Shown piece after piece: positions 1 through 21,143 of a stretch of 64,000 nucleotides of DNA. The notes under the pieces were generated by a model. The model did no database searches. It was not told the DNA's origin and saw only the letters and a list, made by a program, of their open reading frames with translations. Positions within the stretch are counted from its first letter, which is position 1, and each line of letters begins with the position of its first letter. The stretch is from Bacillota bacterium (GTDB taxonomy: Bacteria; Bacillota; Dethiobacteria; Dethiobacterales; Dethiobacteraceae). The stretch lies in NCBI GenBank assembly GCA_041695355.1, contig JBGFRB010000002.1, positions 25,962-89,961 on the forward strand, in the 5' to 3' direction. The position numbers were made by a program, and so were the translations under genes.

Positions 1-1
1 A

Positions 2-1795
2 ACTTTTTTGCAAATGGGTGCGGAACTGGGCAAGAGTGCGGTGCAGGTATTACCCGCCATAAAAGCAGGCTTCAAAGCCAAGGACGCCTTTGAAAAGGCT
101 GTGGAAAAAGCAGGAAAGGAATTCCTCCGGAACTTGTCTCCTGATGAAAAGGCTTTGGTGTTAATCACCAGGCCGTACGGAATTATTGACCGTCACCTGA
201 ATATGCGCATCCCACAGGAACTGGCCAAAATGGGTATCAAAATTATCCCTAAAGATGCTTTGCCCATAGCCGATTATGATGTGTCTGACTTTTGCGGCAA
301 CATGTACTGGCCTTTTGGACAACATATTCTGGCTGCGGTCCAGATTACCAAGGAACGCCCCAATCTTTACCCGGTATTTATTACAAATCACGGATGCGGC
401 CCTGATACCGCTCTTACTCACTATGTGTCGGAAATTATGGGTGACAAGCCGTATTTGCACCTCGAGGTGGATGAACACTCCTCATCGGTTGGCATCATTA
501 CCAGGCTGGAAGCATTTATGAACAGCCTGCATAATCGCCGCCCACCGGCCGCAGGTGCCGGCTTGCCTAAAGTGACAGTGGCTTCAGCTCCCAGCAGCGG
601 CAAACAACTCTTTCTTCCCGCCCTGGGTCCGCATGTGGCTGCTCTTGCCGCTGCACTGAAGCGGTTCGGTTACGACGCGAAACTGCTGGAGCCTCCGCGT
701 GAGGAAGTCGTGGAGTTGGGCCGTTCATTTACCATTACCAAGGAGTACTTCTCCCTGACGGCCTTGCTCGGCAGCGTGGCGGCTACATTATCGAAAGAAA
801 AAGAGCACCTGGCGAGGACTGCGATTTTGCTCCCCGTGCTGGAAGGCGCCGAGGTTGACGGCCAGTATCCCAGACTCCTGAAGACTTTCCTTAACAAACA
901 AGGCCTGACGCAGGTGGAGGTTGTGGCGCCGTTCCTGGAAGATTTGTTTTCTGACAAGTCACCGTTTGGAGCAGAATTGGATACAGCACTGTTCAGAATA
1001 ATTTTTGCGGTAGACGCCTTATCTGAAATGCTGCTTGACACCAGGCCTTATACTGATCATCCGGCAGAGGCCAATGACCTGTTTGCCCGGTATCTGCAAC
1101 ACCTCTCCTCTGCCCCGGACCTCAAGGTAACGCTGGCTGCTGCCGGAGCAGATTTTGCACGGCTGATAACACGGCCTGAGAACAGGCCGGTACTGGCCTT
1201 GGTGGGCGAACCGTACCTGCTTTACAGGCCGGAGTTGAACGCCGGCCTGGTCGAACGGGCTGAGCGGCTCGGGGCTCAAGTCAGGATAGCGCCGTTAGCA
1301 GAAATCATTTATCATTATTTCCTTGAAAAGCAGGCGGAAGCAAAAGCGAAGAAAGAACTGTTCAGCTATCTCAGATACCGTGCAGTGCTCGGCCGGCTGT
1401 TTGCTGAAGCGGATCAGGTTTTCCCAGGGGCCGGCCCGCTCCTGCAATACCGGGCAGAAAAAATAACCCGCCGCAGCAGAGAGCATCTCAGCTGCCTGTA
1501 CGGCGGTTTTGGCACATACCGGATTGGTAAAGCCCTGCTTGCCCGTGAAGAGGGCGCAGACGGCATTATCAACGTGGCGTCATTGTATGAAAACACAGCT
1601 TTGCTGACTAATATCTTTTCTGAGCGGTTTAAAGAAGACGGCGCCTGGCTGAATATTGGAATTGACGGGAAGAAAAACGAAAACGATGAAATTCGATTGC
1701 AGACTTTTGTGCAGAACCTGCTACAGAAAAAAGACAGAGATGTCATAAACAGAGAGGACGGCGTACGGCTAAGCAGCGCCGGCTCCGTGCGATAA
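2..1795 (+). CDS. acyl-CoA dehydratase activase-related protein, C-terminal part (DUF2229-like); 5' end lies outside the window
   Basis: The frame is open to the window edge, with no stop upstream of position 8. The translation (ITRPYGIIDRHLN, ITNHGCGPD, EVDEHSS) recalls the non-ATPase C-terminal region of large BcrAD/BadFG-type CoA-enzyme activase fusions. This is from memory and needs an HMM search. Confidence 0.55.
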   Translation, partial: TFLQMGAELGKSAVQVLPAIKAGFKAKDAFEKAVEKAGKEFLRNLSPDEKALVLITRPYGIIDRHLNMRIPQELAKMGIKIIPKDALPIADYDVSDFCGNMYWPFGQHILAAVQITKERPNLYPVFITNHGCGPDTALTHYVSEIMGDKPYLHLEVDEHSSSVGIITRLEAFMNSLHNRRPPAAGAGLPKVTVASAPSSGKQLFLPALGPHVAALAAALKRFGYDAKLLEPPREEVVELGRSFTITKEYFSLTALLGSVAATLSKEKEHLARTAILLPVLEGAEVDGQYPRLLKTFLNKQGLTQVEVVAPFLEDLFSDKSPFGAELDTALFRIIFAVDALSEMLLDTRPYTDHPAEANDLFARYLQHLSSAPDLKVTLAAAGADFARLITRPENRPVLALVGEPYLLYRPELNAGLVERAERLGAQVRIAPLAEIIYHYFLEKQAEAKAKKELFSYLRYRAVLGRLFAEADQVFPGAGPLLQYRAEKITRRSREHLSCLYGGFGTYRIGKALLAREEGADGIINVASLYENTALLTNIFSERFKEDGAWLNIGIDGKKNENDEIRLQTFVQNLLQKKDRDVINREDGVRLSSAGSVR

Positions 1796-1799
1796 AAAG

Positions 1800-2744
1800 A
1801 TGCAAAACGGCTGTATTGGCTGCGGCGAGTGCCTGTCCGCCTGCCCCCGCCGGGCGATCAGTTATCAGGATGATACAGTTCAATTTCTGGAGGACCTGCG
1901 TCGGGGTAAAGCTATTTCACTTTTAGTCGCGCCGGCTGTTAACAGTCAGTTCGCTTCGCCTGGAAAACTGTTTGGCTTCCTGAAGCAGTCAGGAGTTGAG
2001 TCAGTTTACAACGTCCTCGTTTACGCGGACATAGCCCTTTGGGCTTATGTAGAGGTCTTGCGCCGTAATCCCGGCGCAGGGTTCATTGCCTCGCCCTGTG
2101 CAGCGGTTTCCCGTTATATTCAATGCCACCTGCCCGGGTTACGGCGGCAGCTCATCCCGGTTTTCAGCCCGCTGCATTGCGCGGCAATCTTTCTCAGGAA
2201 ATACAGGAGAGCGGAGGAGAAACTGGCTTTCCTTTCACCTTGCATTGCGAAGCGGGCAGAAATGCGCACCGTCGGCCGCTCAGTGGTCTCTTACAACATC
2301 ACGATTGGGCGGTTGAAGAAACACCTTGGCGAACAGGGTGTGGACCTTAACGCCTGCCCGGCAGCGGACTTTGACGATGCGGCCGGCGGCAACGGCAGAA
2401 CCCTGGGATTTTATGGCGGGTTGCGTGAAAGCCTGCTTCCCCATTTCCCAAACGGGCGCTTCGAGAAAATCAGCGGCCCTGACAGGGTTTACGAATATCT
2501 GGCTGAATTCACGGAAGCAGTGCGGCGGAAGGGTAAGCTGCCGGACTTGCTGGAAGCCTACAACTGCGCCGACCCCTGTGACGGCGGCCCAGGCACCGGA
2601 CAGGTGCCGGCGCCCGACACTCTCCGGAAAGCGGTTGCCGGTCCCGCCGGTCCTGAGGCGGCGGAGAACCACAGAACAGTGCGGGAAATGTTCCACAGAT
2701 TTAAGCGCGAACTGAATTTGTCAGATTTTATGACATTGTACTAG
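1800..2744 (+). CDS. Fe-S protein with an N-terminal 4Fe-4S ferredoxin motif and an [FeFe]-hydrogenase large-subunit C-terminal-like domain
   Basis: N-terminal CIGCGECLSACP motif, then LVAPAV, ASPCAAV and LSPCIAK segments typical of the Fe_hyd_lg_C fold. It starts 5 nt after the preceding gene. Confidence 0.5.
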   Translation: MQNGCIGCGECLSACPRRAISYQDDTVQFLEDLRRGKAISLLVAPAVNSQFASPGKLFGFLKQSGVESVYNVLVYADIALWAYVEVLRRNPGAGFIASPCAAVSRYIQCHLPGLRRQLIPVFSPLHCAAIFLRKYRRAEEKLAFLSPCIAKRAEMRTVGRSVVSYNITIGRLKKHLGEQGVDLNACPAADFDDAAGGNGRTLGFYGGLRESLLPHFPNGRFEKISGPDRVYEYLAEFTEAVRRKGKLPDLLEAYNCADPCDGGPGTGQVPAPDTLRKAVAGPAGPEAAENHRTVREMFHRFKRELNLSDFMTLY

Positions 2745-2767
2745 TCGGTGTCACCGCTAACTCAGCA

Positions 2768-3325
2768 GTGGAGGCGAACAGAGTGGCCGAGGTTATATGT
2801 GTCAGGGACCAGGGAACAGTTATTCAAATAGCCCACCAGGAGATGCTGAAATACCACGGCTGTTCTTTTGTTGCCGGCGTGGCCATGGCGTTTAAAATGC
2901 TGGAACTGGCGCTGTCCTGTCTGGCCGGCGGGGAAATTGTGTCCCGCGATAAAATCAGCATCCTGCTAGGAGTTGACGGTCCGGGAATTATCGACGGCAT
3001 TGAAATGGTCACCAGGGCGAACACCCAAGGCAGGCTGACAGTCGACCCGCAAATCGCCCGGGATAAAGATGCCCCCGATGCTGCCGACGGACGGGGTGGC
3101 AAATATTACTTTGAAGTAAGATGCAACGAAAAGATGATCAGCCTGGCCTTAAAACACGGACTCATCCCATCCGAATTCATTGAACTGTCGTACAAAGTTC
3201 ATGCCGGTACGATTACAGTGGAGGAAGCGATTCAGCTGCAGAAGCTAAAAGAGATGTTAGCTGACTTGTTGATGGCTTCTGACTCAAGTGATTTGTTTAC
3301 GGTCTTTGTTGTCCGTCCAGACTGA
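2768..3325 (+). CDS. hypothetical protein (185 aa); faint FmdE-like HG-x-C segment
   Basis: Long ORF with codon usage like its neighbours. It has a GTG start with a poor RBS, so the start is uncertain. I recognise no firm family. Confidence 0.4.
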   Translation: MEANRVAEVICVRDQGTVIQIAHQEMLKYHGCSFVAGVAMAFKMLELALSCLAGGEIVSRDKISILLGVDGPGIIDGIEMVTRANTQGRLTVDPQIARDKDAPDAADGRGGKYYFEVRCNEKMISLALKHGLIPSEFIELSYKVHAGTITVEEAIQLQKLKEMLADLLMASDSSDLFTVFVVRPD

Positions 3326-3346: not shown

Positions 3347-3375
3347 TTGACGCAACAGGTAAAGCTAGCTATAAT
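3347..3375 (+). promoter_or_regulatory. sigma-A type promoter, TTGACG-17 nt-TATAAT
   Basis: TTGACG at 3347-3352 and TATAAT at 3370-3375 with an exact 17-nt spacer, about 50 nt upstream of the ATG at 3426. Confidence 0.7.
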
Positions 3376-3380
3376 GGTGA

Positions 3381-3395
3381 TGAGAAGGATTTTCA
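3381..3395 (+). promoter_or_regulatory. Fur-family 7-1-7 operator candidate (TGAGAAG-G-ATTTTCA)
   Basis: Matches 11 of 14 positions of the Bacillus-type Fur 7-1-7 consensus TGATAATnATTATCA. It starts 6 nt after the -10 element. It is nearly identical to the box at 7876-7890 (ATGAGAAGGATTTTCATT versus ATGAGAATGATTTTCAAT, 16 of 18). Confidence 0.55.
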
Positions 3396-3425
3396 TTCTT
3401 TACATACTGTCCGGGGGTGATAACA

Positions 3426-4124
3426 ATGACAAGTCTCCCCGCTGCTGTTTTTCATGAAGAGCGAACGGTAGCAAAAAAGGAAACGATAGAAGCTTTTATT
3501 GTCCGCGAGGGCATATATATCTTAGAGGAAGAATTGGACTATTTTTTTGCAAATAAGGCAAAGATGCTGGAGTTGCTGGTGCACAGTATCAATTTCAGTA
3601 AAATCAGTTCCGCGGTACTTCAGGAAAAAATAAACCAGATATTGGGTTCAACTCATGACTTAGAAATGATTCTTGCTAAAATTCAAAGGAGAATCGTAAG
3701 GGAGCTGGACAGAGCCAATTACCGGTATGCTTTTTGTTTAAATATTGCCGATCTGGATCAAGAGTTGCCTCGGTTTGAATCAGATATTACAGAGCAACAG
3801 AGAACACTCAAACTTAGCCGTACCATTGCCAGGGGAATTGATATGGCCTGGAGAAAAGCCGGAAGCAGTTTTCTGCCGAAAAACATGACGAGAGTAACCA
3901 ATACGCTACAGGCGGGTAATTACCTTATCTCTGTTTTTGCCGTAAGTCCCAGACAACAGGAAACCGAAATGAAAGCCGGCTGTCTGAAAGCGGCAAGAGC
4001 GACACTGAAACAATTTCAGGCTGAGCTTTACAATACTCTGGTAAAACAGATAGCGGGGCAACTGTTCACACTTCAGGGTTATTATGAACCGGAGCCCGAG
4101 ATGCCCCTGGTAAAATATGCGTAG
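3426..4124 (+). CDS. hypothetical soluble protein (232 aa); low-GC orphan gene behind the Fur-like box
   Basis: ATG at 3426 preceded by GGGGGTGA. The ORF is closed by an intrinsic terminator. I recognise no family. Confidence 0.6.
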   Translation: MTSLPAAVFHEERTVAKKETIEAFIVREGIYILEEELDYFFANKAKMLELLVHSINFSKISSAVLQEKINQILGSTHDLEMILAKIQRRIVRELDRANYRYAFCLNIADLDQELPRFESDITEQQRTLKLSRTIARGIDMAWRKAGSSFLPKNMTRVTNTLQAGNYLISVFAVSPRQQETEMKAGCLKAARATLKQFQAELYNTLVKQIAGQLFTLQGYYEPEPEMPLVKYA

Positions 4125-4152
4125 CGATAATAACAAAATATTTTAATTAGCC

Positions 4153-4176
4153 GCCCGGGAAACGGGCATTTTTTTA
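4153..4176 (+). terminator. rho-independent terminator
   Basis: GCCCG-ggaaa-CGGGC stem-loop followed by A and a run of 7 T, about 30 nt after the stop at 4124. Confidence 0.65.
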
Positions 4177-4203
4177 TATGCTTTTGCATACACAGGAAAA
4201 TTT

Positions 4204-5040
4204 ATGGAAATGATACCAGATAGATTTTATAGGAGGGAAGAACTGGTGACAGACCTTAATCATGCCGATGAAAAAGCTAAAAAAGGTAACGGAGAGGAAG
4301 GATTGGCACCTCCCTTAAACTATAGTGCCCCAGGACCCGTACCTTCGGGGCACTTTAATCCGTGGCAAACGGCTCCGCCTGGTGGATACGGCTACGTAAA
4401 CCCGGGGACATCGGCCGGGGGAGGCTACGTCAATCCGGGACAGACCGGTTTCCCGGGAAGTAATCCGGGCTATCAACAGCAAAGTACAAAAAAAATCAAT
4501 CAGGAGGGTCCCATGAGCTACGCAGGATATCCGGGAATGTACGGCGCTTATTACGGGCAGGGCATCAGAGATCCGCACTACAGATACGCAACCCCAGCGA
4601 ACTACCCGTATCATTATCACCCTCAACATGATCACTCTTGTTACCATCATCCTTATTATTATCGCTATGGATATAATCCTTACTATGGCGGCGCCGGTTA
4701 CGGGATGAATCCGGCCGGACCCGGCTACGGCGATCCGTGCTGCAGCGGCGCCGGGCCAAACATCTTTACTCCTGGATATTTTTCCTACATGCTGCACAGC
4801 CCCAGGGTAAATAATTTCTTCCGCGCCATTGGTATTTTGACGGTGGGTATGTTACTGATTCCATCGGTCGCAAGGGCTTTACGTCCCCTTGCCGTCTCCG
4901 CTGTTGAAGGTGCTTTGACTGTTTCACAGGAAGTAAAAAATATCTTCAACGATGCCAGGGAAGATGTGGAGGATATGTTTGCCGAGGCTAAGTGGAAAGA
5001 TGGAAAAGAAGCGGGAAAAGAAGGTAACCAGGGCAGCTAG
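4204..5040 (+). CDS. membrane-anchored protein with a roughly 200-aa Gly/Pro/Tyr/His-rich low-complexity N-terminal region and a C-terminal TM plus amphipathic helix module (possibly DUF5132-type)
   Basis: Translation read directly. It has GGYGYVNPG / GGGYVNPG repeats and a His/Tyr patch HYRYATPANYPYHYHPQHDHSCYHHPYYYRYGYNPYY. The C-terminus (FFRAIGILTVGMLLIPSVARALRPLAVSAVEGA) is paralogous to the next ORF. Confidence 0.6.
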   Translation: MEMIPDRFYRREELVTDLNHADEKAKKGNGEEGLAPPLNYSAPGPVPSGHFNPWQTAPPGGYGYVNPGTSAGGGYVNPGQTGFPGSNPGYQQQSTKKINQEGPMSYAGYPGMYGAYYGQGIRDPHYRYATPANYPYHYHPQHDHSCYHHPYYYRYGYNPYYGGAGYGMNPAGPGYGDPCCSGAGPNIFTPGYFSYMLHSPRVNNFFRAIGILTVGMLLIPSVARALRPLAVSAVEGALTVSQEVKNIFNDAREDVEDMFAEAKWKDGKEAGKEGNQGS

Positions 5041-5128
5041 TCGCTTTTGCGGCTTTTTGCAGTAGCATCAATATTTACCTCCTTGCGCAGGAATACTAAG
5101 AATAAAGACTGCGTGAGGAGGTTTTGCC

Positions 5129-5377
5129 ATGTTAAGTTTGTATAGAAAGTTGTTTTACACCGCTCCCTTTCGCAGGGGCCTTTGGTGGGGCGCAGGCACC
5201 GCAGGGGTACTGTGGCTCTTTGGCAAGAACCTGCGGCCGCTGGCAGTGGAAGGCGCCAAGAAATTGATTAAACTGGACCAAGGAGTTAAGGACGCTGTCC
5301 GGCAGGCCAGCGAAGGTGTAAGCGGAATTGTAATGGAGGCCCAGGCCAACAGGTTGAAAGATAAGGAGTACCGGTGA
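5129..5377 (+). CDS. small single-pass membrane protein, paralog of the C-terminal module of the 4204 ORF (possibly DUF5132-type)
   Basis: GAGGAGG RBS. It shares the LRPLAV-EGA-V(K)(N/D) segment with ORF 4204-5040. Its stop overlaps the ATPase start (TGAATG), suggesting translational coupling. Confidence 0.6.
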   Translation: MLSLYRKLFYTAPFRRGLWWGAGTAGVLWLFGKNLRPLAVEGAKKLIKLDQGVKDAVRQASEGVSGIVMEAQANRLKDKEYR

Positions 5378-7714
5378 ATGAGTTTTGGCCGGATTGAAGC
5401 GATCCATTGTTTGCCCGGAAGGGTTCGGGTAAAAATACACGGTTTAAAAGGGAACGTCCCCTTTGCAGTTTCACTGGAAAATACCTTGCGCAGAAACGAG
5501 TATGTTTTTCACGTTAAGGCTAATCCGCAAACGGCTAAAGCCTTAATTCTCTTTGACGGAGAAAGGTTGCCTCCGGAAACACTCTTTGCTGAACTAAAGA
5601 CTGATATACACTATATTTCGCAGAGAGTTGCACCCGTTGACGTCAGGCAAAATCGGATTCAGGCGGGAACTGCAATCAGGCGAAAAGATGAAACGTTTGA
5701 GCCGGAAGATATGCCGCTTGCGGTTCAGGTTGCCCAGGTGGCCGTCACCGGCGCTATCCTCCTGGGGCTGATTTTAAAGAGATATTTTTTTAAAACATCA
5801 CTGCCGGTCTCCTCCGGCAGGGTGAATTTTCTGGCTACGATGACCACAATCATAGCCGGCTATCCCATTATCCGAAGCGGCCTGGAGAAACTGATCACCC
5901 GCGGAAAACTGAATAACGACCTGCTTATCAGTACATCAACAATGGTTGCGCTGTTGTTAAAAGAAAATATTACCGGGCTGGTGGTTGTCTGGCTGGTAAA
6001 CCTGAGTACCCTGCTGCAGACACTAACGATGAAAAAATCACGGAAAGCAATCAAAGAAATGTTACAGGGTAAGGAAGAGACAGCCTGGATTGAAATAGAC
6101 GGTACTGTGGTCTCGATTCCCGTTGACAGCATTGAAGTGGGAAACACCATTCTCTGCTTTATCGGCGACCGCGTACCTGTTGATGGTGCAGTTACCGATG
6201 GCGAGGCAACTGTCAGCCAGGCTGTCATTACCGGTGAGTCAGTGCCGGTAATGAAAACCCCGGGAGACAAAATATATGCAGGTTCCATTGTGGAGCAGGG
6301 CACGGTCAGAATCCTGGTGGAAAAGGCAGGACAGAATACTTCCATTGCCAAAATTGCGGCCATGGTAGAGGATGCTTCCTGTGACAGGGCTCCGGTTGAG
6401 AATATGGCGGACCGTTATGCTGATAGAATTGTTCCCTTCTCATTTGGACTGGCCGCGCTGGTATACCTGTTAACCAGGGATTTCAAGCGCAGCATGACCA
6501 TGTTGGTGGTCGCCTGCCCCTGTGCCGCCAGCCTTGCTACGCCCACTGCTATCAGCGCATCCATGGGTAATGCGGCGCGACGCGGTATATTGGTCAAGGG
6601 AGGGAGCTACCTGGAAAGAGTGGGTAAGGCTGACGTGGTCCTATTTGATAAGACAGGTACGTTAACCGAAGGCAAACCCACCGTCAGAGAAATCCTGCCC
6701 ATGAGCAAAACATTCCCTATTGATATGATAGTACAGCTTGCTGCTTCGGTAGAGTATCAGACAAATCATCCCCTGGCCGGCGCGGTGGTAAAGGCTGCTG
6801 AGGAAATGGGGCTTGAATTGCATCCTGTTAGCCGGAAGGAAGTTATTATCGGCCAGGGCGTCAGGGGAAGCATTAAAAATGTGCCTTTGGCTGTGGGCAA
6901 CTCTACTCTGATGAGAGATATGGGGATTAACATTACGTTGGCAAAGGCCAAAGCTTACAGGCTGCATATGCTGGGGCAAACCGTTCTGTATGTGGCCCGG
7001 TACAACAGGCTGATCGGTCTCATTGCCATCGCCGACAACATCCGTCCTGACAGCCTGACAGCTATCCGGAAACTGCGGCAGGCCGGTATAGAACATATTG
7101 GTTTAGTCACAGGCGACAGCAATGGCACAGCTGACCTGGTGGCGCGGGAATTGGGGCTTGACAAGGTATGGTCGGAAACAATGCCGGCTGACAAAGTACG
7201 TATTGTTCAAAAATTCCAGCAGGCTGACAAAACAGTTGTCATGGTGGGAGACGGTATTAATGACTCGCCGGCTCTGGCCAGGGCTGATATCGGAATAGCT
7301 ATGGGTACCGGGGGAACGGACGTGGCTATTGAATCGGCGGATATTGTGCTGGCTGCCGACGATCCCCTGAAAATAGCCTCTCTGATTAGTTTAAGCAAAC
7401 ATACCCTGGAGATCATAAAACAGAATTTCCTGTTTGCGGTGGGGATCAATATCAGCGGACTGCTCCTGGGAGCGGGCAAGGTGATTACTCCGTTAACAGC
7501 AGCCGTCTTACACAATATAAGCACCTTTGGCGTGGTGGCGAACTCATCGAGGCTGTTTCACTTTAATCCTGATTCCGTGAAAGGAAGGCGCGGTAATGCC
7601 GGAATTAAGCGAACTGGAAGGCAAAATGAAAATGGCTATGAAGGAGCTAAAGGAATGCGTAGAGGTAAGTATGCGGATCAGAGCGGAAGACCCCGAAGCA
7701 AAAAAAAGAATTGA
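5378..7714 (+). CDS. heavy-metal translocating P1B-type ATPase with an N-terminal cysteine-less HMA-like (HMA2-type) domain
   Basis: Motifs TGESVPV, ACPCAASLATP (CPC in the TM helix), DKTGTLT, NHPLA, GDGINDSPAL and HNISTFGVVANSSRL. The N-terminus reads IHCLPGRVRVKIHG. Confidence 0.9.
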   Translation: MSFGRIEAIHCLPGRVRVKIHGLKGNVPFAVSLENTLRRNEYVFHVKANPQTAKALILFDGERLPPETLFAELKTDIHYISQRVAPVDVRQNRIQAGTAIRRKDETFEPEDMPLAVQVAQVAVTGAILLGLILKRYFFKTSLPVSSGRVNFLATMTTIIAGYPIIRSGLEKLITRGKLNNDLLISTSTMVALLLKENITGLVVVWLVNLSTLLQTLTMKKSRKAIKEMLQGKEETAWIEIDGTVVSIPVDSIEVGNTILCFIGDRVPVDGAVTDGEATVSQAVITGESVPVMKTPGDKIYAGSIVEQGTVRILVEKAGQNTSIAKIAAMVEDASCDRAPVENMADRYADRIVPFSFGLAALVYLLTRDFKRSMTMLVVACPCAASLATPTAISASMGNAARRGILVKGGSYLERVGKADVVLFDKTGTLTEGKPTVREILPMSKTFPIDMIVQLAASVEYQTNHPLAGAVVKAAEEMGLELHPVSRKEVIIGQGVRGSIKNVPLAVGNSTLMRDMGINITLAKAKAYRLHMLGQTVLYVARYNRLIGLIAIADNIRPDSLTAIRKLRQAGIEHIGLVTGDSNGTADLVARELGLDKVWSETMPADKVRIVQKFQQADKTVVMVGDGINDSPALARADIGIAMGTGGTDVAIESADIVLAADDPLKIASLISLSKHTLEIIKQNFLFAVGINISGLLLGAGKVITPLTAAVLHNISTFGVVANSSRLFHFNPDSVKGRRGNAGIKRTGRQNENGYEGAKGMRRGKYADQSGRPRSKKKN

Positions 7715-7832
7715 TAACTACTGGGAGCAGTTTCTGTTCCACTTCCTCGAGTATGTCAGGCGGCGGGAAAAAGAGAGCGGAGAAGACCTTTTAAAAAGCA
7801 TCTCCCTGTTAAAATTGCTCAAACTGTTTTAA
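7596..7832 (+). CDS. possible small helical protein (78 aa) overlapping the ATPase 3' end by 119 nt
   Basis: ATG preceded by AGGAAGG at a 7-nt spacing. The product is Glu/Lys-rich and looks helical, whereas the overlapping ATPase tail is an Arg/Gly/Lys-rich low-complexity string. No family recognised. Confidence 0.3.
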   Translation: MPELSELEGKMKMAMKELKECVEVSMRIRAEDPEAKKRIDNYWEQFLFHFLEYVRRREKESGEDLLKSISLLKLLKLF

Positions 7833-7840
7833 AAACGCTC

Positions 7841-7869
7841 TTGACATGAGCGGGTAAAATAAATATACT
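7841..7869 (+). promoter_or_regulatory. sigma-A type promoter, TTGACA-17 nt-TATACT
   Basis: TTGACA at 7841-7846 and TATACT at 7864-7869 with a 17-nt spacer, about 47 nt upstream of the ATG at 7916. Confidence 0.65.
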
Positions 7870-7876
7870 AGTATAT
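7863..7876. promoter_or_regulatory. perfect 14-bp palindrome ATATACTAGTATAT overlapping the -10 element
   Basis: Self-complementary by direct reading. A second inverted repeat, TATATGA (7872-7878) / TCATATA (7894-7900), brackets the Fur-like box. Confidence 0.5.
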
Positions 7877-7890
7877 GAGAATGATTTTCA
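7876..7890 (+). promoter_or_regulatory. Fur-family 7-1-7 operator candidate (TGAGAAT-G-ATTTTCA)
   Basis: Matches 12 of 14 positions of TGATAATnATTATCA. The 19-mer GAGAATGATTTTCAATATC (7877-7895) matches 15 of 19 positions of GATAATGATAATCATTATC. Its position relative to the -10 element is the same as for the box at 3381. Confidence 0.6.
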
Positions 7891-7915
7891 ATATCATATA
7901 CTTGGGGTGGAAAAC

Positions 7916-8197
7916 ATGACAGTATTATTGGTTGGCGCGGACAGGCTTGGGAATATGCCGAAAGAACTGGAAGATCACGGCGCCAGAGAAATCATTCATT
8001 GGTCGGGACGCAAGGAAAGAAACAGGGAGATTCCGAGACATGTTGATATGGTTCTCGTTGTTCACGACTATGTTAACCATTCGTTGATGGACAGCGTCAA
8101 AGGACAGGCCAAGCGCCGCCGGTTGCCCATTGTCTTTGCCAAAAGAGGGGTGGCCGACCTGAAACAGGCATTGACAAACGGGAAACGACAGGCGTGA
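7916..8197 (+). CDS. DUF2325-like small protein
   Basis: ATG at 7916 with a GGGGTGG RBS; the track's GTG at 7907 is less likely. The pattern VLLVGADRLG...HW.G...VDMVLVVHDYVNHS...AK resembles DUF2325 from memory. Confidence 0.6.
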   Translation: MTVLLVGADRLGNMPKELEDHGAREIIHWSGRKERNREIPRHVDMVLVVHDYVNHSLMDSVKGQAKRRRLPIVFAKRGVADLKQALTNGKRQA

Positions 8198-8232
8198 AAC
8201 AGTTCTTTCCCCCAGCGGAGGAGAAATCATAG

Positions 8233-8937
8233 ATGATGACCAAAATTGTCAGGTTTTTTCAGCCCGGTGTACAAAAGACCGGTTTCGGCTTTGCCGGGTA
8301 CCGTGAGCAGGCTGAAGCAAATTATCAGGATTTTTTTCACGACATCATTGAGTGTCTGATTGCGGCGCTGGAAGCGAAGGACGTGTATACATGCGGCCAT
8401 TCTTCCAGGGTGGCGGATATGTCCTTAGACCTGGCACGAGCACTGGAAATAAAAGGTGCGGACCTTGACGACGTACATATTGCGGCTCACTTGCATGATG
8501 TGGGGAAAATCGGAATCTCAGAAAATATTTTAACCAAGCCGGGAAAGCTGATTGCTCATGAATGGGCGCAAATGCAGAGGCACCCGGTAACAGGCTATAA
8601 CATCCTGCGTAAATCAAAACTGCTTTATAAGATTGCCAAAATAGTTCTCCACCATCATGAAAGATGGGATGGGACAGGCTATCCCCAGGGCTTGCAGAGA
8701 AACCATATTCCCTTAGGTTCGAGAATAATTGCCGTGGCCGATGCCGTTGATGCCATGACCACGGATAGGCCTTACAGAACGCCTCTGTCTTGGGATGGTT
8801 GTTATCAGGAATTGCAGAAGAACAAAAGTAAGCAATTTGACCCGATAGTGGTCGATGCCGCAGCACAATTCCGGAAAAAATGGGCGGAAATCCGGTATGA
8901 TAAGCAGGTTGCGGATAAAAGACAGCAGAGCGATTGA
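8233..8937 (+). CDS. stand-alone HD-GYP domain phosphodiesterase (c-di-GMP turnover)
   Basis: Motifs HSSRVA, HLHDVGKIGI and HHHERWDGTGYPQGL, with a GGAGGAG RBS. Confidence 0.85.
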   Translation: MMTKIVRFFQPGVQKTGFGFAGYREQAEANYQDFFHDIIECLIAALEAKDVYTCGHSSRVADMSLDLARALEIKGADLDDVHIAAHLHDVGKIGISENILTKPGKLIAHEWAQMQRHPVTGYNILRKSKLLYKIAKIVLHHHERWDGTGYPQGLQRNHIPLGSRIIAVADAVDAMTTDRPYRTPLSWDGCYQELQKNKSKQFDPIVVDAAAQFRKKWAEIRYDKQVADKRQQSD

Positions 8938-8943
8938 AACATA

Positions 8944-9495
8944 ATGAGGAAGTCGGGTGAGATTATGAAGACATTTCTTGGCAGTGTTGTCTTTTCCCTG
9001 GTGAGCGGTGCTATGATGAAAAGTATATGTGCGTTGAACATCCGTGTTTTACACGCTATGCCCGGCAGAATGCGCCTGCAGTGCAATGCCTGGAAAAGTG
9101 AACCCGTTGCGGAAGGGGTGGCTGATTCCCTCCGTAGATATAGCTTTGTGGAGCGAGTAAACATATCTCCGGTTACCGGGAGTTTGCTGCTCCAATTCAC
9201 GCAAAAGCACTTGAGCCGGAAACAGGTTGACAAGGTTATGGATTTGCTGGCGAAACAAACGATGGCAGGTATTGAAAAAGAAGTGTCCAGTTCTACACTG
9301 TTGATGGGCCGGATAGTTAATCACCTGGACAGTCAGGTAAAAGTAGCATCAAATGGGATCTTTGATTTGCTGTCTCTTTTTATTATTGCCCTGACTGCTC
9401 AGGCAGTAAGGGGGTTTAGCAGTAACCGCGGCAATTCACTTCAGCAGTTGTTCTGGGTGTACAGGTTGCTGCGAGGCGGGAGGCAAGTAATTTGA
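8944..9495 (+). CDS. HMA-like (HMA2-type, no CxxC) domain protein with a C-terminal hydrophobic segment
   Basis: LHAMPGRMRLQCNAW...VNISPVTGSLLLQF parallels the N-termini of both ATPases. There is a TM-like stretch GIFDLLSLFIIALTAQAV. Its stop overlaps the TTG start of the next ATPase (TTGA). The start could instead be the ATG at 8965. Confidence 0.6.
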   Translation: MRKSGEIMKTFLGSVVFSLVSGAMMKSICALNIRVLHAMPGRMRLQCNAWKSEPVAEGVADSLRRYSFVERVNISPVTGSLLLQFTQKHLSRKQVDKVMDLLAKQTMAGIEKEVSSSTLLMGRIVNHLDSQVKVASNGIFDLLSLFIIALTAQAVRGFSSNRGNSLQQLFWVYRLLRGGRQVI

Positions 9496-11651
9496 AGAGC
9501 TCTATACAGGTGCTCCATCACCTGCCCGGAAGGGTGAGGATACGAATCGGCAAAGGCCTGGGTCATGCGACACTGATTGAAAGCAAATGCCGTCGCCTGC
9601 CTCAGGTATATGCGGCAAACTACGCTGAGCAAACAGGAACTCTTTTGCTTTACTATGACCCGTTATTTCCCGGGAGCAGGGTCATGCTCTGGGTGAGAGA
9701 GCTGTTTTTGAACGGTAAGAAAACAACTGAGCAGCATGACTACGGGAAAAATGGATCGCCGGCGTTATCATCAGAGATTTTTAAAAACATCCTGGCCATT
9801 GCAGTCTATGCCATTGAACGTTCCCTGACGCCCTCCCGGAAAGCTGAGGAAAGCGGGCTGCGCCGTCTTTTAAGTCCGACGGTTCTGGCCTTGCTGTTTG
9901 CCGCCAAACAGGTTATTCGCAGTGGAATTGACAGTATGATGATAACGAAGCAGGTAAACGCCGTTACTTTAACTGCAGTGGCCGTCCTTGCCGCAGCCGT
10001 AAAGGGGAAGGCCGGTTCTGCATTAATCATCGTTACTCTTTCTAATCTCGGGGAAATACTGACCCAGTACACTGCCAATAAAACAAGAAACTATATCACA
10101 CGTATGCTGAAGCTGGATGTCCCCTACGTGTGGCGGGTGGAGAACGACGGAAATGAGCGTAGTGTTCATATCGACTCAGTGGTTCCGGGAGAAACAATCG
10201 CAGTTTTTATAGGGGAAAAAATATCGGTGGATGGTTGCGTGACTTATGGTTTGGGGACCGTTGACGAGTCTTCGCTTACAGGCGAATTTATGCCCCGGGA
10301 GGTGGTAAAGGGTAGCCGTGTTTATGCCGGCAGCATCTTAAAGTCAGGCTATATTCAGATCCAAGCGGAGAGGGTAGGCGACGACACAGCAATTACCCGT
10401 ATGATAAAACTTATTGAACAGGCCCAAAACAGACGAGCGCCGATCCAGTCACAGGCGGATAAAATGGCCCAGTCGCTGGTTCCCGTGTCATTTGCCATGG
10501 CGGCGGCTGTTTACGCTTTGACCAAGGACTGGAGCCGCGTAATGAACATGCTGTTCATCGATTATGCCTGCGGCCTGACACTTTCTACAACGACCGCCAT
10601 TTCCGCAGCTATTGGTAAAGCGGCCAAACACGGCATTTTAATCAAAGGAGGGCAATACATAGAGTGGCTATCCGGGGTGGATACGGTTGTCTTTGATAAA
10701 ACGGGAACCCTTACTGAAGGAAGGCCGGTAATTCGTAACATTTATTATTTTAATAACCATACAAAAGAGGATGTAATTCGCTATGCGGCTTCTGCTGAAG
10801 AGCATTCCTCGCACCCCTTTGCCGGTACCATTTTGCAGTATGCCAGGGAACAGCAATTATGTATTCCGGAACACGGTGAGGTGTTAAACATCATAGGCCG
10901 GGGCATACAGGCGGAGATAGACGGCAATATGGTACTGGTGGGCAGTGACCTGCTGATGAAGGAGAAGCTTGTTGATCTCAGTTCCCGCCAGACGGAAGAG
11001 CTGAAGGCTGCGGCGGATGAGGCGATGATTTATGTCGCGTGTAACGGCAGGCTTATGGGCATGATCAGCGTTCATGACCCGGTGCGTGCGGGGATGAATC
11101 GCACCGTTAACCAGTTGCGCCGTCAGGGGATTGACGAAATTATCCTTCTTACAGGCGATAAAAAGCGGTTAGCCGGCCATATTTCCAATAAACTGTTTTT
11201 TGATAATTACCACGCTGAGTTGTTGCCGGAAGATAAGGCCAACTTAATTAAATGGTACCGGCAAGGCGGCAGCAGGGTGATGATGGTGGGTGACGGTATT
11301 AATGATGCGCCTGCCCTGGCTTATGCGGATGTGGGAGTTACATTAGGTGGCAAGCGTACAGATATGGCTATGGAAGCCAGTGACGTAATCATCATTGGAG
11401 ATGACCCCCTACAGTTGCCCACACTAATCAGACTTGCTCAGCAGACAATGAAAACCATCCGGCAAAACTTCTTAACTACCATTATGGTTAACAGCATAGC
11501 GATGATGCTGGGAGCAATGGGTACTATCACGCCGGTTCAGGCAGCTCTGATACATAACGCGACCACTATCGGCGTGGTGGTTAACAGTTCCAAGATAATA
11601 TTTGTAAAGCTTCCCGGTAATGGTAACGTTACCGTGCATGAGAGGAGGTGA
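9492..11651 (+). CDS. divergent P1B-like P-type ATPase with an N-terminal HMA2-like domain and no CPx motif
   Basis: Motifs TGEFMPR, DKTGTLT, SSHPFAG, GDGINDAPAL and HNATTIGVVVNSSKI. The position aligned with CPC reads DYACGLTLSTTTAI, which lacks the proline. The N-terminus reads LHHLPGRVRIRIG. Confidence 0.88.
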   Translation: MKSSIQVLHHLPGRVRIRIGKGLGHATLIESKCRRLPQVYAANYAEQTGTLLLYYDPLFPGSRVMLWVRELFLNGKKTTEQHDYGKNGSPALSSEIFKNILAIAVYAIERSLTPSRKAEESGLRRLLSPTVLALLFAAKQVIRSGIDSMMITKQVNAVTLTAVAVLAAAVKGKAGSALIIVTLSNLGEILTQYTANKTRNYITRMLKLDVPYVWRVENDGNERSVHIDSVVPGETIAVFIGEKISVDGCVTYGLGTVDESSLTGEFMPREVVKGSRVYAGSILKSGYIQIQAERVGDDTAITRMIKLIEQAQNRRAPIQSQADKMAQSLVPVSFAMAAAVYALTKDWSRVMNMLFIDYACGLTLSTTTAISAAIGKAAKHGILIKGGQYIEWLSGVDTVVFDKTGTLTEGRPVIRNIYYFNNHTKEDVIRYAASAEEHSSHPFAGTILQYAREQQLCIPEHGEVLNIIGRGIQAEIDGNMVLVGSDLLMKEKLVDLSSRQTEELKAAADEAMIYVACNGRLMGMISVHDPVRAGMNRTVNQLRRQGIDEIILLTGDKKRLAGHISNKLFFDNYHAELLPEDKANLIKWYRQGGSRVMMVGDGINDAPALAYADVGVTLGGKRTDMAMEASDVIIIGDDPLQLPTLIRLAQQTMKTIRQNFLTTIMVNSIAMMLGAMGTITPVQAALIHNATTIGVVVNSSKIIFVKLPGNGNVTVHERR

Positions 11652-11655
11652 AAAA

Positions 11656-11889
11656 ATGTTAGTAAAGTCAGATTTTTGGATTGGTTTGGCAGTGGGTGCG
11701 GTGACCGGAGTGGTGGGATACCGTCTCTATGACCAATACGGGGACCAACTGAGAAGTCTGGTACTGCAATCCTGCGCTCCGGTAGTCCAGACGGTAACAG
11801 GTGGCGCAGAACCAAGCCTGGAAGAACTGGTTGCGCAAAAAGAGCGGCTGGAGGATCTGATAGCAGAAAAAAAGCAGAAAAATATATAA
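11656..11889 (+). CDS. small single-pass membrane protein with a Gly-zipper TM (GLAVGAVTGVVG) and a charged helical tail
   Basis: ATG at 11656 after GAGGAGG. It starts 5 nt after the ATPase stop. No family assigned. Confidence 0.5.
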   Translation: MLVKSDFWIGLAVGAVTGVVGYRLYDQYGDQLRSLVLQSCAPVVQTVTGGAEPSLEELVAQKERLEDLIAEKKQKNI

Positions 11890-12013
11890 ATGGGTACTGC
11901 TCACGGGCGTTGGCGGCAAAAGCATCACCGCCAATGTCCGTGGGACAACGGCGGACAGTGTGTGTAAGTGGCGCTCCTGTAACGTGGAGCGGAAGACATG
12001 TGAGGCGATCGGC

Positions 12014-13369
12014 ATGAGCAAAAATCTGAAAGATGCCATGAAAAATATTTCTGTCAGTTGCCTGGGTTCCATAAAATTCTGGGGTTTCCCGCTGGTAGCG
12101 TGGACGCTGCTGGCTGCCGCTTCATTACTTTGGAATCTTTACTCTCTCAGGCAGAACACGCTTAAAGCCTTTATGTATGAAGCGCAGACACTGGCCGGGG
12201 TAGCGTTGTCTACCATCATGTGGACTGCCCAACATGAACGGGTATATGTCCCGCTTACTGAATGGATTCCTCCGGAACCATTCTTTGCACAGTTGCCTGA
12301 AAGAGAAGTTGTCACTACCGGCGGTTTAAGGTTTGCGCAGGTATCGCACGCTTTAATCAGCCGCCAGGTAGCGGAACAGGCTTTGCTTCATGGCTGGGAA
12401 CAGAAATCTATCCGCATGACCAGCCTGGAACCGTTAAACCCTGTTAATATGCCTGATAAATGGGAAAAAGACGCATTAAAGAGTTTTAAAAATGGGCAAA
12501 CAGAAACATTCGCCCTTACCGGAGAAGGAGCAGGGGCTTTACTAAAATATATGATGCCTCTCAGGGCAAGGCCGGAATGCCTGAAATGCCATCTTGGCTA
12601 CAGAGAAGGGGACGTCCTTGGCGGTTTGTCTGTCAGTGAGCCGGCGGCGTCACGCCTTGCCATGGTTAAACCACAAATTATCAGCATGATTGCTACTCAC
12701 GCAGGTATATTTTTCTTGGTTGCGGTGGCGATGCTCTTTCTTCTGTCGCGCTTGAGGCGGCAGTGGCTTGATCTTGACCGGAGCAACAATGAGCAGAAAA
12801 ATATGATCGTAAAGCTGGCCGAAAGCGAGGCCAAGCTAAAAGAAATGGCCATCACGGACGAACTTACCGGACTAAAAAACAGGCGGGGATTTTTTCTCCT
12901 TGCCGAACAACTGATAAAGGCAGCTAACCGGCAGAAAACAAAGATCTGGTTTATTTTTATTGATGTTGACGGGATGAAATCAGTTAATGATAAGTACGGG
13001 CATAGCGAGGGGGACGTATCCCTGACCGCGACTGCTGTCATCCTTAAGAATACCTTTCGGGAGTCAGATGTAGTCGCGCGCATAGGTGGGGATGAATTTG
13101 CGGCCATTATCGCAGGTGCCGGTGAAAACAGCGGCTGCGCTATTTTGGCTCGGTTGCGTGAAAATCTGGACCTATACAATGCCGGCGTAATAAAACCCTA
13201 TAGATTGTCCTTCAGTGCCGGCATCGTTTATTGCGACCCTGCTGAAACGTCCTGCAGTATTGAAGCGCTGCTAAAAAAGGCAGATGAATTAATGTATGAA
13301 AGTAAGCGGGGAAAAACCCATTACTGCAATGGCTGCAATACAGGCTCATCCGCGTTGGAACCGGCCTGA
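12014..13369 (+). CDS. membrane diguanylate cyclase (GGDEF) with a periplasmic c-type-heme DUF3365-like sensor domain
   Basis: One CxxCH (PECLKCH) lies between two TM segments. A coiled linker follows, then RIGGDEFAAI. The internal ATG at 12014 (MSKNLKD) is the likely start. Confidence 0.8.
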   Translation: MSKNLKDAMKNISVSCLGSIKFWGFPLVAWTLLAAASLLWNLYSLRQNTLKAFMYEAQTLAGVALSTIMWTAQHERVYVPLTEWIPPEPFFAQLPEREVVTTGGLRFAQVSHALISRQVAEQALLHGWEQKSIRMTSLEPLNPVNMPDKWEKDALKSFKNGQTETFALTGEGAGALLKYMMPLRARPECLKCHLGYREGDVLGGLSVSEPAASRLAMVKPQIISMIATHAGIFFLVAVAMLFLLSRLRRQWLDLDRSNNEQKNMIVKLAESEAKLKEMAITDELTGLKNRRGFFLLAEQLIKAANRQKTKIWFIFIDVDGMKSVNDKYGHSEGDVSLTATAVILKNTFRESDVVARIGGDEFAAIIAGAGENSGCAILARLRENLDLYNAGVIKPYRLSFSAGIVYCDPAETSCSIEALLKKADELMYESKRGKTHYCNGCNTGSSALEPA

Positions 13370-20137: not shown

Positions 20138-20167
20138 TTGACAAGAGACGAACGAAAGAAGTACAAT
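20138..20167 (+). promoter_or_regulatory. sigma-A type promoter candidate, TTGACA-18 nt-TACAAT
   Basis: Both hexamers read directly from the sequence, upstream of cysK. Confidence 0.5.
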
Positions 20168-20219
20168 AAAACCAATTAAACATATAGGTTTATAAATATT
20201 TATGAAAGCAGGGAAGGAA

Positions 20220-21143
20220 ATGGGCCGAATCTACAACAATATTGCGGAGTTGATTGGCGGGACACCACTGCTCAGACTGCACAGAATAAACGATGGTTAC
20301 GCGGAGGTACTGGCCAAGCTGGAATCGTTTAACCCCGGTGGCAGTGTCAAGGATCGCATCGGCATTTCCATGATTGAGGCGGCCGAGAAACAGGGACTTA
20401 TCCACAGCAAGACGGTTATCATTGAACCGACCAGCGGCAATACCGGCATAGCGCTGGCGCTGGTCTGCGCCGGCAGGGGATACCGCCTGATTCTGACTAT
20501 GCCGGAAACAATGTCGGTGGAGCGGCGCAGCCTGCTCAAGGGATACGGGGCTGAACTGGTGTTGACTCCCGGCACTGAGGGGATGAAAGGCGCCATCCGC
20601 AAGGCCGAGGAACTGGCACTGGAAATTCCGGACTCCTTTATCCCCCAGCAGTTTAAAAACCCGGCAAACCCGCAGGTTCACCGTGAAACCACGGCTGAAG
20701 AAGTCTGGCGTGACACGGACGGGCGGGTGGATATTTTTGTCGGCGGTGTGGGCACGGGTGGGACAATCTCCGGTGTGGGCCAGGTGCTGAAGCCAAGGAA
20801 GAAGAGTTTACGCATCGTGGCGGTGGAACCGGCCGCCTCGCCGGTGCTTTCCGGCGGGATGCCGGGACCGCATAAAATCCAGGGGATCGGCGCCGGATTT
20901 GTCCCGGAAATCCTGGATGTCGATGTTATCGACCAGATTATCCGGGTCAGCGAACAGGATGCTTTCGTTACCGCGCGCCGTCTGGCGCGGGATGAAGGGC
21001 TGTTGGTCGGTATTTCCTCCGGAGCGGCGGCTTACGCTGCCCTGTCTCTTTCCAGGCTGGAGGAGAACCGGGGTAAAACTATCGTGGTGGTTTTGCCGGA
21101 TACCGGCGAGCGCTATCTGTCCACTGTTCTGTTTCAGGAGTAA
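20220..21143 (+). CDS. cysK: cysteine synthase A (O-acetylserine sulfhydrylase)
   Basis: PLP-lysine motif [11 protein letters not shown], plus [10 protein letters not shown] and [11 protein letters not shown] at 20220 follows GGGAAGGA. Confidence 0.88.

Follow-up and report, generated by a model that had tools for sequence, protein, structure and literature searches.

Predicted Fur-type operators at two promoters of a P1B-ATPase locus in an uncultured Firmicute

Described Fur systems and the two promoters of the window

In Bacillus subtilis, the outer bases of an operator set the Fur class (TGA...TCA) apart from the PerR (TTA...TAA) and Zur (TCG...CGA) classes, and the Fur box itself is reportedly a 7-1-7 inverted repeat, TGATAAT-N-ATTATCA, with an extended 21-bp (7-1-7)x2 form. 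Fur and PerR also control a metal pump in this organism, the Fe(II) efflux P1B ATPase PfeT; its activation occurs at high iron and through a site that lies upstream of the promoter. The ferrosome (fez) operons of C. difficile and D. vulgaris, which encode R-rich/HMA_2 P1B ATPases together with small membrane partners, are Fur-repressed: fez genes go up at low iron in several bacteria, and the ferrosome system is constitutively derepressed in a C. difficile fur::CT mutant. In that species, the ATPase gene CD630_05910 and CD630_05920, which we take to be the fezB and fezA of Pi et al. 2023, are induced both at low iron and in the fur mutant and have been flagged with a Fur box.

A further described system is the dFUR-box of Desulfovibrio, Geobacter and Desulfuromonas, whose 17-bp consensus WTGAAAATNATTTTCAW was derived from the regions upstream of feoAB and fur in delta-proteobacteria (Rodionov et al. 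2004; PMC545781). Its predicted regulon combines feoAB with an HD-domain protein, a GGDEF protein and a P-type ATPase, the corresponding hdd, gdp and ATPase genes being predicted Fur targets in two Desulfovibrio species (PMC545781). The two sites described below share the dFUR-box consensus, and one of them, site 2, also shares an arrangement seen there, tandem boxes with a 6-bp shift. They differ in their setting, since the dFUR-box hosts are Gram-negative sulfate or metal reducers whereas the present host is an uncultured groundwater Firmicute (nearest named relative UBA993), and since the operons behind the present sites encode DUF2325, HMA_2 proteins and an orphan helical protein.

Both sites lie in a 64,000-nt stretch of DNA, referred to as the window, which belongs to a 210-kb contig of a JGI groundwater metagenome; the sequencing runs found to contain it are all of metagenomic DNA. 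Promoter P1 (3347-3375, + strand) consists of a -35 element TTGACG (3347-3352), a 17-nt spacer and a -10 element TATAAT (3370-3375), matching the sigma-70 consensus at 11/12 positions, in agreement with the near-consensus promoter that an earlier note on this DNA had read there. Promoter P2 (7841-7869, + strand) has the same layout and the same 11/12 match to consensus, with TTGACA at 7841-7846 and, after 17 nt, TATACT at 7864-7869. At site 1, the 5 nt GGTGA separate TATAAT from TGAGAAGGATTTTCA (3381-3395), one fewer than the 6 nt previously counted; at site 2, AGTATA stands between TATACT and TGAGAATGATTTTCA (7876-7890).

The element at site 1 is a Fur-type box, ATGAGAAGGATTTTCAT (3380-3396, no strand assigned), whose 7-1-7 core, TGAGAAG-G-ATTTTCA, spans 3381-3395. 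The box is single: the copy displaced by 6 bp has a weak score of 2.8. Site 2 carries a double box, ATGAGAATGATTTTCAATATCAT (7875-7897, likewise without strand), made of two 7-1-7 motifs that overlap with a 6-bp shift, TGAGAAT-G-ATTTTCA at 7876-7890 and TGATTTT-C-AATATCA at 7882-7896; this region resembles the classical 21-bp (7-1-7)x2 consensus of B. subtilis, matching it at 17/21 positions. The 18-mers ATGAGAAGGATTTTCATT (3380-3397) and ATGAGAATGATTTTCAAT (7875-7892) differ at two positions, so the two-mismatch recurrence beside a second promoter that had been claimed does exist. Our recount of the match to TGATAATNATTATCA, 11/14 for site 1 and 12/14 for site 2, likewise reproduced the values given before for TGATAAT-n-ATTATCA. 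Agreement with the TGAAAATNATTTTCA variant is better, at 12/14 and 13/14, respectively; that is, both sites fit TGAAAAT-N-ATTTTCA more closely than the Bacillus consensus. Compared with the B. subtilis Fur box, the 7-1-7 inverted repeat, the outer TGA and TCA bases and the overlap with a promoter are all shared, whereas positions 4 and 12 are G/T in the present boxes and not T/A. As a separate feature, a perfect 14-bp palindrome, ATATACTAGTATAT (7863-7876), overlaps the -10 element of P2; we considered it as a conserved element, but it is absent from two close relatives (L005 and L008, below) and is probably incidental.

The outer TGA...TCA bases, already pointed out in the earlier note, are present in both boxes, and neither site has a match to the PerR or Zur consensus with three or fewer mismatches. 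Both observations speak against the idea that the sites serve a different Fur-family paralogue with Fur-like specificity, be it PerR-, Zur-, Mn- or Ni-responsive, and hence another metal or a peroxide signal. This idea draws on the several Fur paralogues that anaerobic Firmicutes and Desulfovibrio often have (one to three have been described), and on the first ATPase of the locus, whose CPC site and PacL-like partner recall CtpC-type Mn/Zn pumps. The iron context in relatives, described below, weighs against it as well, as do the experiments in which homologous systems proved to be Fur-controlled, and we regard it as unlikely. Regulators of other families (Rex, CRP/FNR-type, NsrR, ArsR/SmtB and MerR) were considered only informally, and were set aside for unsuited spacing or sequence; in the case of a MerR-type activator, the 17-nt promoter spacer argues against it.

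Rank of the boxes within the window

For a scan with an independent weight matrix, we built a symmetric matrix from 58 of the predicted delta-proteobacterial Fur sites of PMC545781 (Table 3; consensus as above). The published Fur site of the D. desulfuricans G20 feoA-feoB operon, ATGAGAAGGATTTTCAA, was left out of the matrix, since it and box 1 agree at 16/17 positions. The training sites, which are predicted sites from another phylum and not footprinted ones, score 9.1-24.2 on this matrix, with a median of 19.5. Among the ~64,000 positions of the window, the two motifs of site 2 took ranks 1 (7875, score 21.7) and 2 (7881, score 21.2), both above the training median, and site 1 took rank 4 (3380, score 13.7), in the lower part of the training range. 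Rank 3 (46065, score 14.8) falls within a sigma-54 activator gene, and we treated this coding-region match as chance. That it nevertheless outscores box 1 makes the modest score of the latter a point against the Fur reading; when compared with shuffles of its own upstream region, the best match at box 1 has p = 0.003.

How much weight the recurrence of the element deserves is a separate matter. The 18-mer pair was previously put forward as the sign of a shared operator, and yet 18-mer pairs with two or fewer mismatches number 375 in the window and 102 in a shuffled version of it, so the recurrence by itself is unremarkable. What gives it significance is its position relative to promoters. When both strands of the 64 kb are searched for TTGACA-16/18-TATAAT at 11/12 or better, only three promoters are found, at 3347, 7841 and 20138, and two of these three (3347 and 7841) carry a box that starts 4-6 nt past the -10 element and overlies the predicted transcription start. 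The third, TTGACA-18-TACAAT (20138-20166), precedes the gene of a PLP-dependent (PALP) enzyme (20202-21143) and has no Fur-like box. Exact matches to TGAGAANGATTTTCA number two in the window, one at site 1 and one at site 2.

These numbers also bear on the proposal that the two elements have no regulatory role and are either left over from a promoter duplication or an AT-rich palindrome that arose by chance. About 100 such 18-mer pairs are indeed expected by chance in 64 kb, and the two operons, each with HMA_2 and P1B ATPase genes, are paralogous in part. Outside the hexamers and the box, however, the P1 and P2 regions do not align, so their likeness is confined to the box and does not extend to a duplicated promoter. 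Together with the persistence of the box in distant relatives, this leaves a relic or chance origin very unlikely.

Boxes at orthologous promoters and beside iron genes

Homologues of the locus were gathered by related-locus, homologous-protein and encoding-contig searches, and 14 upstream regions were tested, namely the two window sites and 12 regions from relatives. In nine of the 14, comprising both window sites and 7/12 of the relatives' regions, the best match reaches p <= 0.003 when the region is compared with its own shuffles, and scans of whole loci place the top matches at these promoters. The 7-1-7 boxes in question always lie 33-54 nt ahead of the start codon, although the first-gene homologues were sampled down to 32% identity and the DNA around the boxes has diverged.

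The boxes of operon 2 are best illustrated by three relatives. L005, whose ATPase is 81% identical, has TTGACA-17-TATACT-6-ATGAGAATGATTTTCAATGTCAT ahead of DUF2325, and L008 (84%) has TTGACA-17-TATTAT-4-ATGATAACGAATTTCAATATCAT ahead of HMA_2, so that the layout of promoter P2 recurs in both. The third, L010 (61%), carries TTGATAATGAAAATCATTTTCATA before DUF2325, with a perfect 17-bp consensus inside. The double form of box 2 is conserved in all three. Homologues of the orphan gene behind P1 tell much the same story: ATGAGAAAGATTTTCATT precedes a 90% identical homologue in L011, TATAAT-7-GTGAGAATGATTTTCATT a 57% identical one in L013/L014, and ATGATAATAATTATCAA and TTGATAATTATTATCAA the 32% identical homologues in L015 and L016, where the core is a perfect B. 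subtilis consensus, TGATAAT-A/T-ATTATCA. L009 (orphan homologue 34%, ATPase 56%) has TTGACA-17-TATAAT-5-ATGAGAAGTGATTTCATT; its boxes score weakly on the matrix, as do the HMA_2 promoters of Desulfitibacter and Desulfuribacillus. A P1-type pair of -35 and -10 elements is kept in L011, L013 and L009.

Even the most distant orthologues retain a box. Its sequence shifts from lineage to lineage but stays within the Fur consensus, a pattern that points to selection for the binding of a protein and is hard to square with a non-functional relic, the box persisting before orthologues only 32-57% identical. A search that uses no prior motif agrees: across the 14 regions, the best common 15-mer is the site 2 core itself, with a total distance of 39, compared with 50-60 in 30 shuffled sets.

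The same comparison speaks to whether the element might act as RNA, as a 5'-UTR hairpin or a riboswitch-like leader. If the predicted start sites are right, the box is transcribed; a 6-bp hairpin can be drawn for it, and the palindromic changes in relatives would preserve pairing. What is conserved, though, is a specific sequence consensus that goes beyond mere pairing, and the second box of site 2, shifted by 6 bp, is incompatible with a single hairpin. The box hairpin alone reaches only -0.9 kcal/mol, the 5' UTRs fold no better than shuffles (z-scores +0.54 and -0.40), and the element has no Rfam match at E <= 1. We have rejected an RNA element on these grounds and consider it extremely improbable, leaving a DNA operator for Fur as our preferred reading.

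The closest named relative lacks the box. The contig search with ATPase 2 led to a single relative, L001, from the Firmicutes bacterium UBA993 MAG, whose ATPase is 87% identical and which has no Fur-like match across its 11 kb; this counts in favour of a relic or a chance element. A FeoA-domain gene has been inserted ahead of DUF2325 in L001 (5279-5671), where the Fur box was lost or was never present. Given the 87% identity of the ATPases, the comparison of L001 with the window is an example of rapid regulatory turnover. L010 presents a very different picture, with an unusually dense set of strong Fur-like boxes at 3500-11300, mostly beside uncharacterised genes, which gives this region the look of an "iron island". 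Boxes at 3514/3520/3594 precede a DUF3793 gene, those at 4820/4826 a 47-aa gene and those at 6511/6517 DUF2325, while the boxes at 11104 and 11242/11248 stand before a 62-aa gene that is followed by pilin-like and unknown genes.

The link to iron itself comes from the genes found beside these operons. The orthologous operon of L001 is headed by the FeoA gene. In Desulfuribacillus stibiiarsenatis (L007), GGDEF-feoA-feoA-feoB-HD_5 comes next after the ATPase cluster, and the box ahead of it, GTGAAAATCAATATCAT, reaches a score of 20.6. Both findings argue against a paralogue with another signal. The GGDEF-headed operon of L007 (6204-11244) lies directly after the HMA_2/ATPase cluster and provides a second example in which iron transport is tied to c-di-GMP enzymes. 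Since relatives carry this motif ahead of feoAB and of other operons, the "small regulon inside this locus" proposed in the earlier note appears too narrow, and the two sites are most likely members of a general (global) Fur regulon rather than of a private, local one.

Taken together, the rank on an independent matrix, the conservation at orthologous promoters with diverged flanks, the 15-mer found without a prior, the iron-gene context with its feoA and feoB links and the published Fur-target homologues support the Fur-box reading made at the outset. On this basis, we consider it highly probable that an iron-sensing Fur repressor, whose gene lies elsewhere in the genome, uses both elements as its operators. 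In the window and the fetched loci, tblastn with approximate Fur queries of E. coli and B. subtilis gave no significant match to a fur gene.

Genes behind the boxes and predicted iron control

Directly behind P1 lies a 232-aa orphan gene (3426-4124, + strand), whose homologues in L009, L011, L013/L014, L015 and L016 all stand behind a Fur-type box. The protein belongs to no Pfam or NCBIfam family, and the family is rare, with two clusters in an index of 5.8 billion proteins and four loci in JGI metagenomes. Its AlphaFold model (pLDDT 76.6) predicts an elongated all-helical bundle; a Foldseek search of the PDB had no match at E <= 0.001, and its top-ranked structures were designed bundles, the Mx stalk and F-BAR at a TM of about 0.2.

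Just past the orphan gene, a GC-rich hairpin resembling an intrinsic terminator, GCCCGGGAAACGGGC with a T-run (4153-4177, + strand), has equivalents 3' of the orphan gene in L014 and L009. Because this conserved terminator comes after it, control by box 1 would be limited to the orphan gene, which is the sole gene certainly transcribed from P1 as judged from these signals. Further downstream on the + strand follow a Tyr/Gly/Pro-rich membrane protein (4204-5040), an 82-aa membrane protein (5129-5377) and P1B ATPase 1 (5378-7714; HMA_2 N-terminus, ACPCA, HNIST). Whether box 1 also governs these genes (4204-7714), ATPase 1 included, is uncertain, as it would need read-through of the terminator; the matrix scan found no Fur-like match of their own in 4125-5378. 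An element of the form TTTT(C/G)CATAC(T/A) occurs just 3' of the orphan terminator in the window (4168-4204), in L014 (3750-3790) and in L009 (15130-15165), where it is present twice. Possibly it supplies the -10 region for a distinct promoter of the membrane-protein and ATPase 1 genes.

P2 is followed on the + strand by DUF2325 (7916-8197), a stand-alone HD-GYP protein (8233-8937), an HMA_2 protein (8944-9495), P1B ATPase 2 (9492-11651; DYACG, HNATT, without the CPx proline), a small membrane protein (to 11889) and, converging on nrfHA, a Tll0287-GGDEF cyclase (11960-13369). Neighbouring genes here overlap or are separated by short gaps, and in 8200-13369 the intergenic gaps have no predicted terminator-like site on the + strand, the only such site (9686-9702) being inside the ATPase 2 gene. 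It is therefore probable that 7916-13369 form one operon, with DUF2325 as its first gene. HMA_2 modules with the motif HxxPGRxRxR occur at 8944-9495 and at the N-termini of both ATPases.

The other flank of P1 (window 1-3325) holds genes for a BcrAD/DUF2229 activase-like and an [FeFe]-hydrogenase-like protein, which are syntenic with the ATPase operons in relatives (L005:1-6028; L009:26-7018); there, the block also includes an Ssu/NMT1-type ABC transporter. In C. difficile, the fur mutant shows strong induction of an ssuA2B2C2 cluster that includes an "iron hydrogenase-like" gene, CD630_29920. By analogy, the upstream hydrogenase-like cluster may also be iron-regulated here, its promoter lying outside the window.

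How the two boxes would work follows from their placement. Assuming that transcription starts about 7 nt past the -10 element, as predicted, the boxes would span roughly -1 to +15 of the transcript and, through the second overlapping box, reach about +21 at P2. Under iron sufficiency, the start site would be covered by Fe(II)-Fur, probably as a single dimer at site 1 and as a pair of dimers at site 2, so that transcription could not begin. Iron scarcity would release Fur and allow expression of the genes, P1 giving the 232-aa orphan and P2 the operon of DUF2325, HD-GYP, HMA_2, P1B ATPase, the small membrane protein and possibly GGDEF. Both the low-iron induction and the Fur repression of the locus are predicted from the operators alone, and we likewise infer the transcription starts, the identity of the protein as Fur, the metal signal and how far the transcripts extend.

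This repression geometry would match the reported low-iron induction of the fez genes and is the opposite of Fur-activated efflux. With PfeT, the locus shares the control of a P1B ATPase by a Fur-family protein, but with boxes on the transcription start, expression at low iron is to be expected. The likeness to the Fur-repressed fez operons is closer, as R-rich/HMA_2 P1B ATPases with small membrane partners are common to both; low-iron induction and derepression in a fur mutant are known for those operons and predicted for the present locus. As to the pumps themselves, the FezB signature combines D[Y/F]SCA with HNxxT, and only the latter is kept in both ATPases, the former being replaced by DYACG in ATPase 2 and ACPCA in ATPase 1. 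Since neither has the exact FezB motif, we use "ferrosome-like" as a functional analogy and not as a claim to membership of the fez cluster.

In themselves, the sites, although well supported by the comparisons above, are an ordinary regulatory element: Fur control of such genes is already known and the mechanism is textbook. A more far-reaching interpretation, which we consider unlikely, is that the boxes mark a conserved, unrecognised iron-starvation module of anaerobic Firmicutes, in which Fur co-induces a sister pump of FezB, box-linked partners and a c-di-GMP pair. If true, the pump would represent a proline-free sister group of FezB, DUF2325 and the all-helical 232-aa orphan family would be uncharacterised partners that always stand behind a Fur box, and HD-GYP and GGDEF would act as c-di-GMP phosphodiesterase and cyclase, respectively. 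Iron limitation would then be wired directly to c-di-GMP signalling and to the biogenesis of a ferrosome-like compartment.

Irrespective of such a module, low iron acting through Fur would provide a concrete and testable regulatory signal for two uncharacterised R-rich P1B ATPases closely related to the ferrosome pump. It would also assign a predicted iron-starvation role to the 232-aa helical orphan, to DUF2325 and to the stand-alone HD-GYP protein. Lastly, Fur control of clusters that combine HD-domain, GGDEF and P-type-ATPase genes, first predicted in Desulfovibrio, would by this prediction extend to uncultured groundwater Firmicutes.
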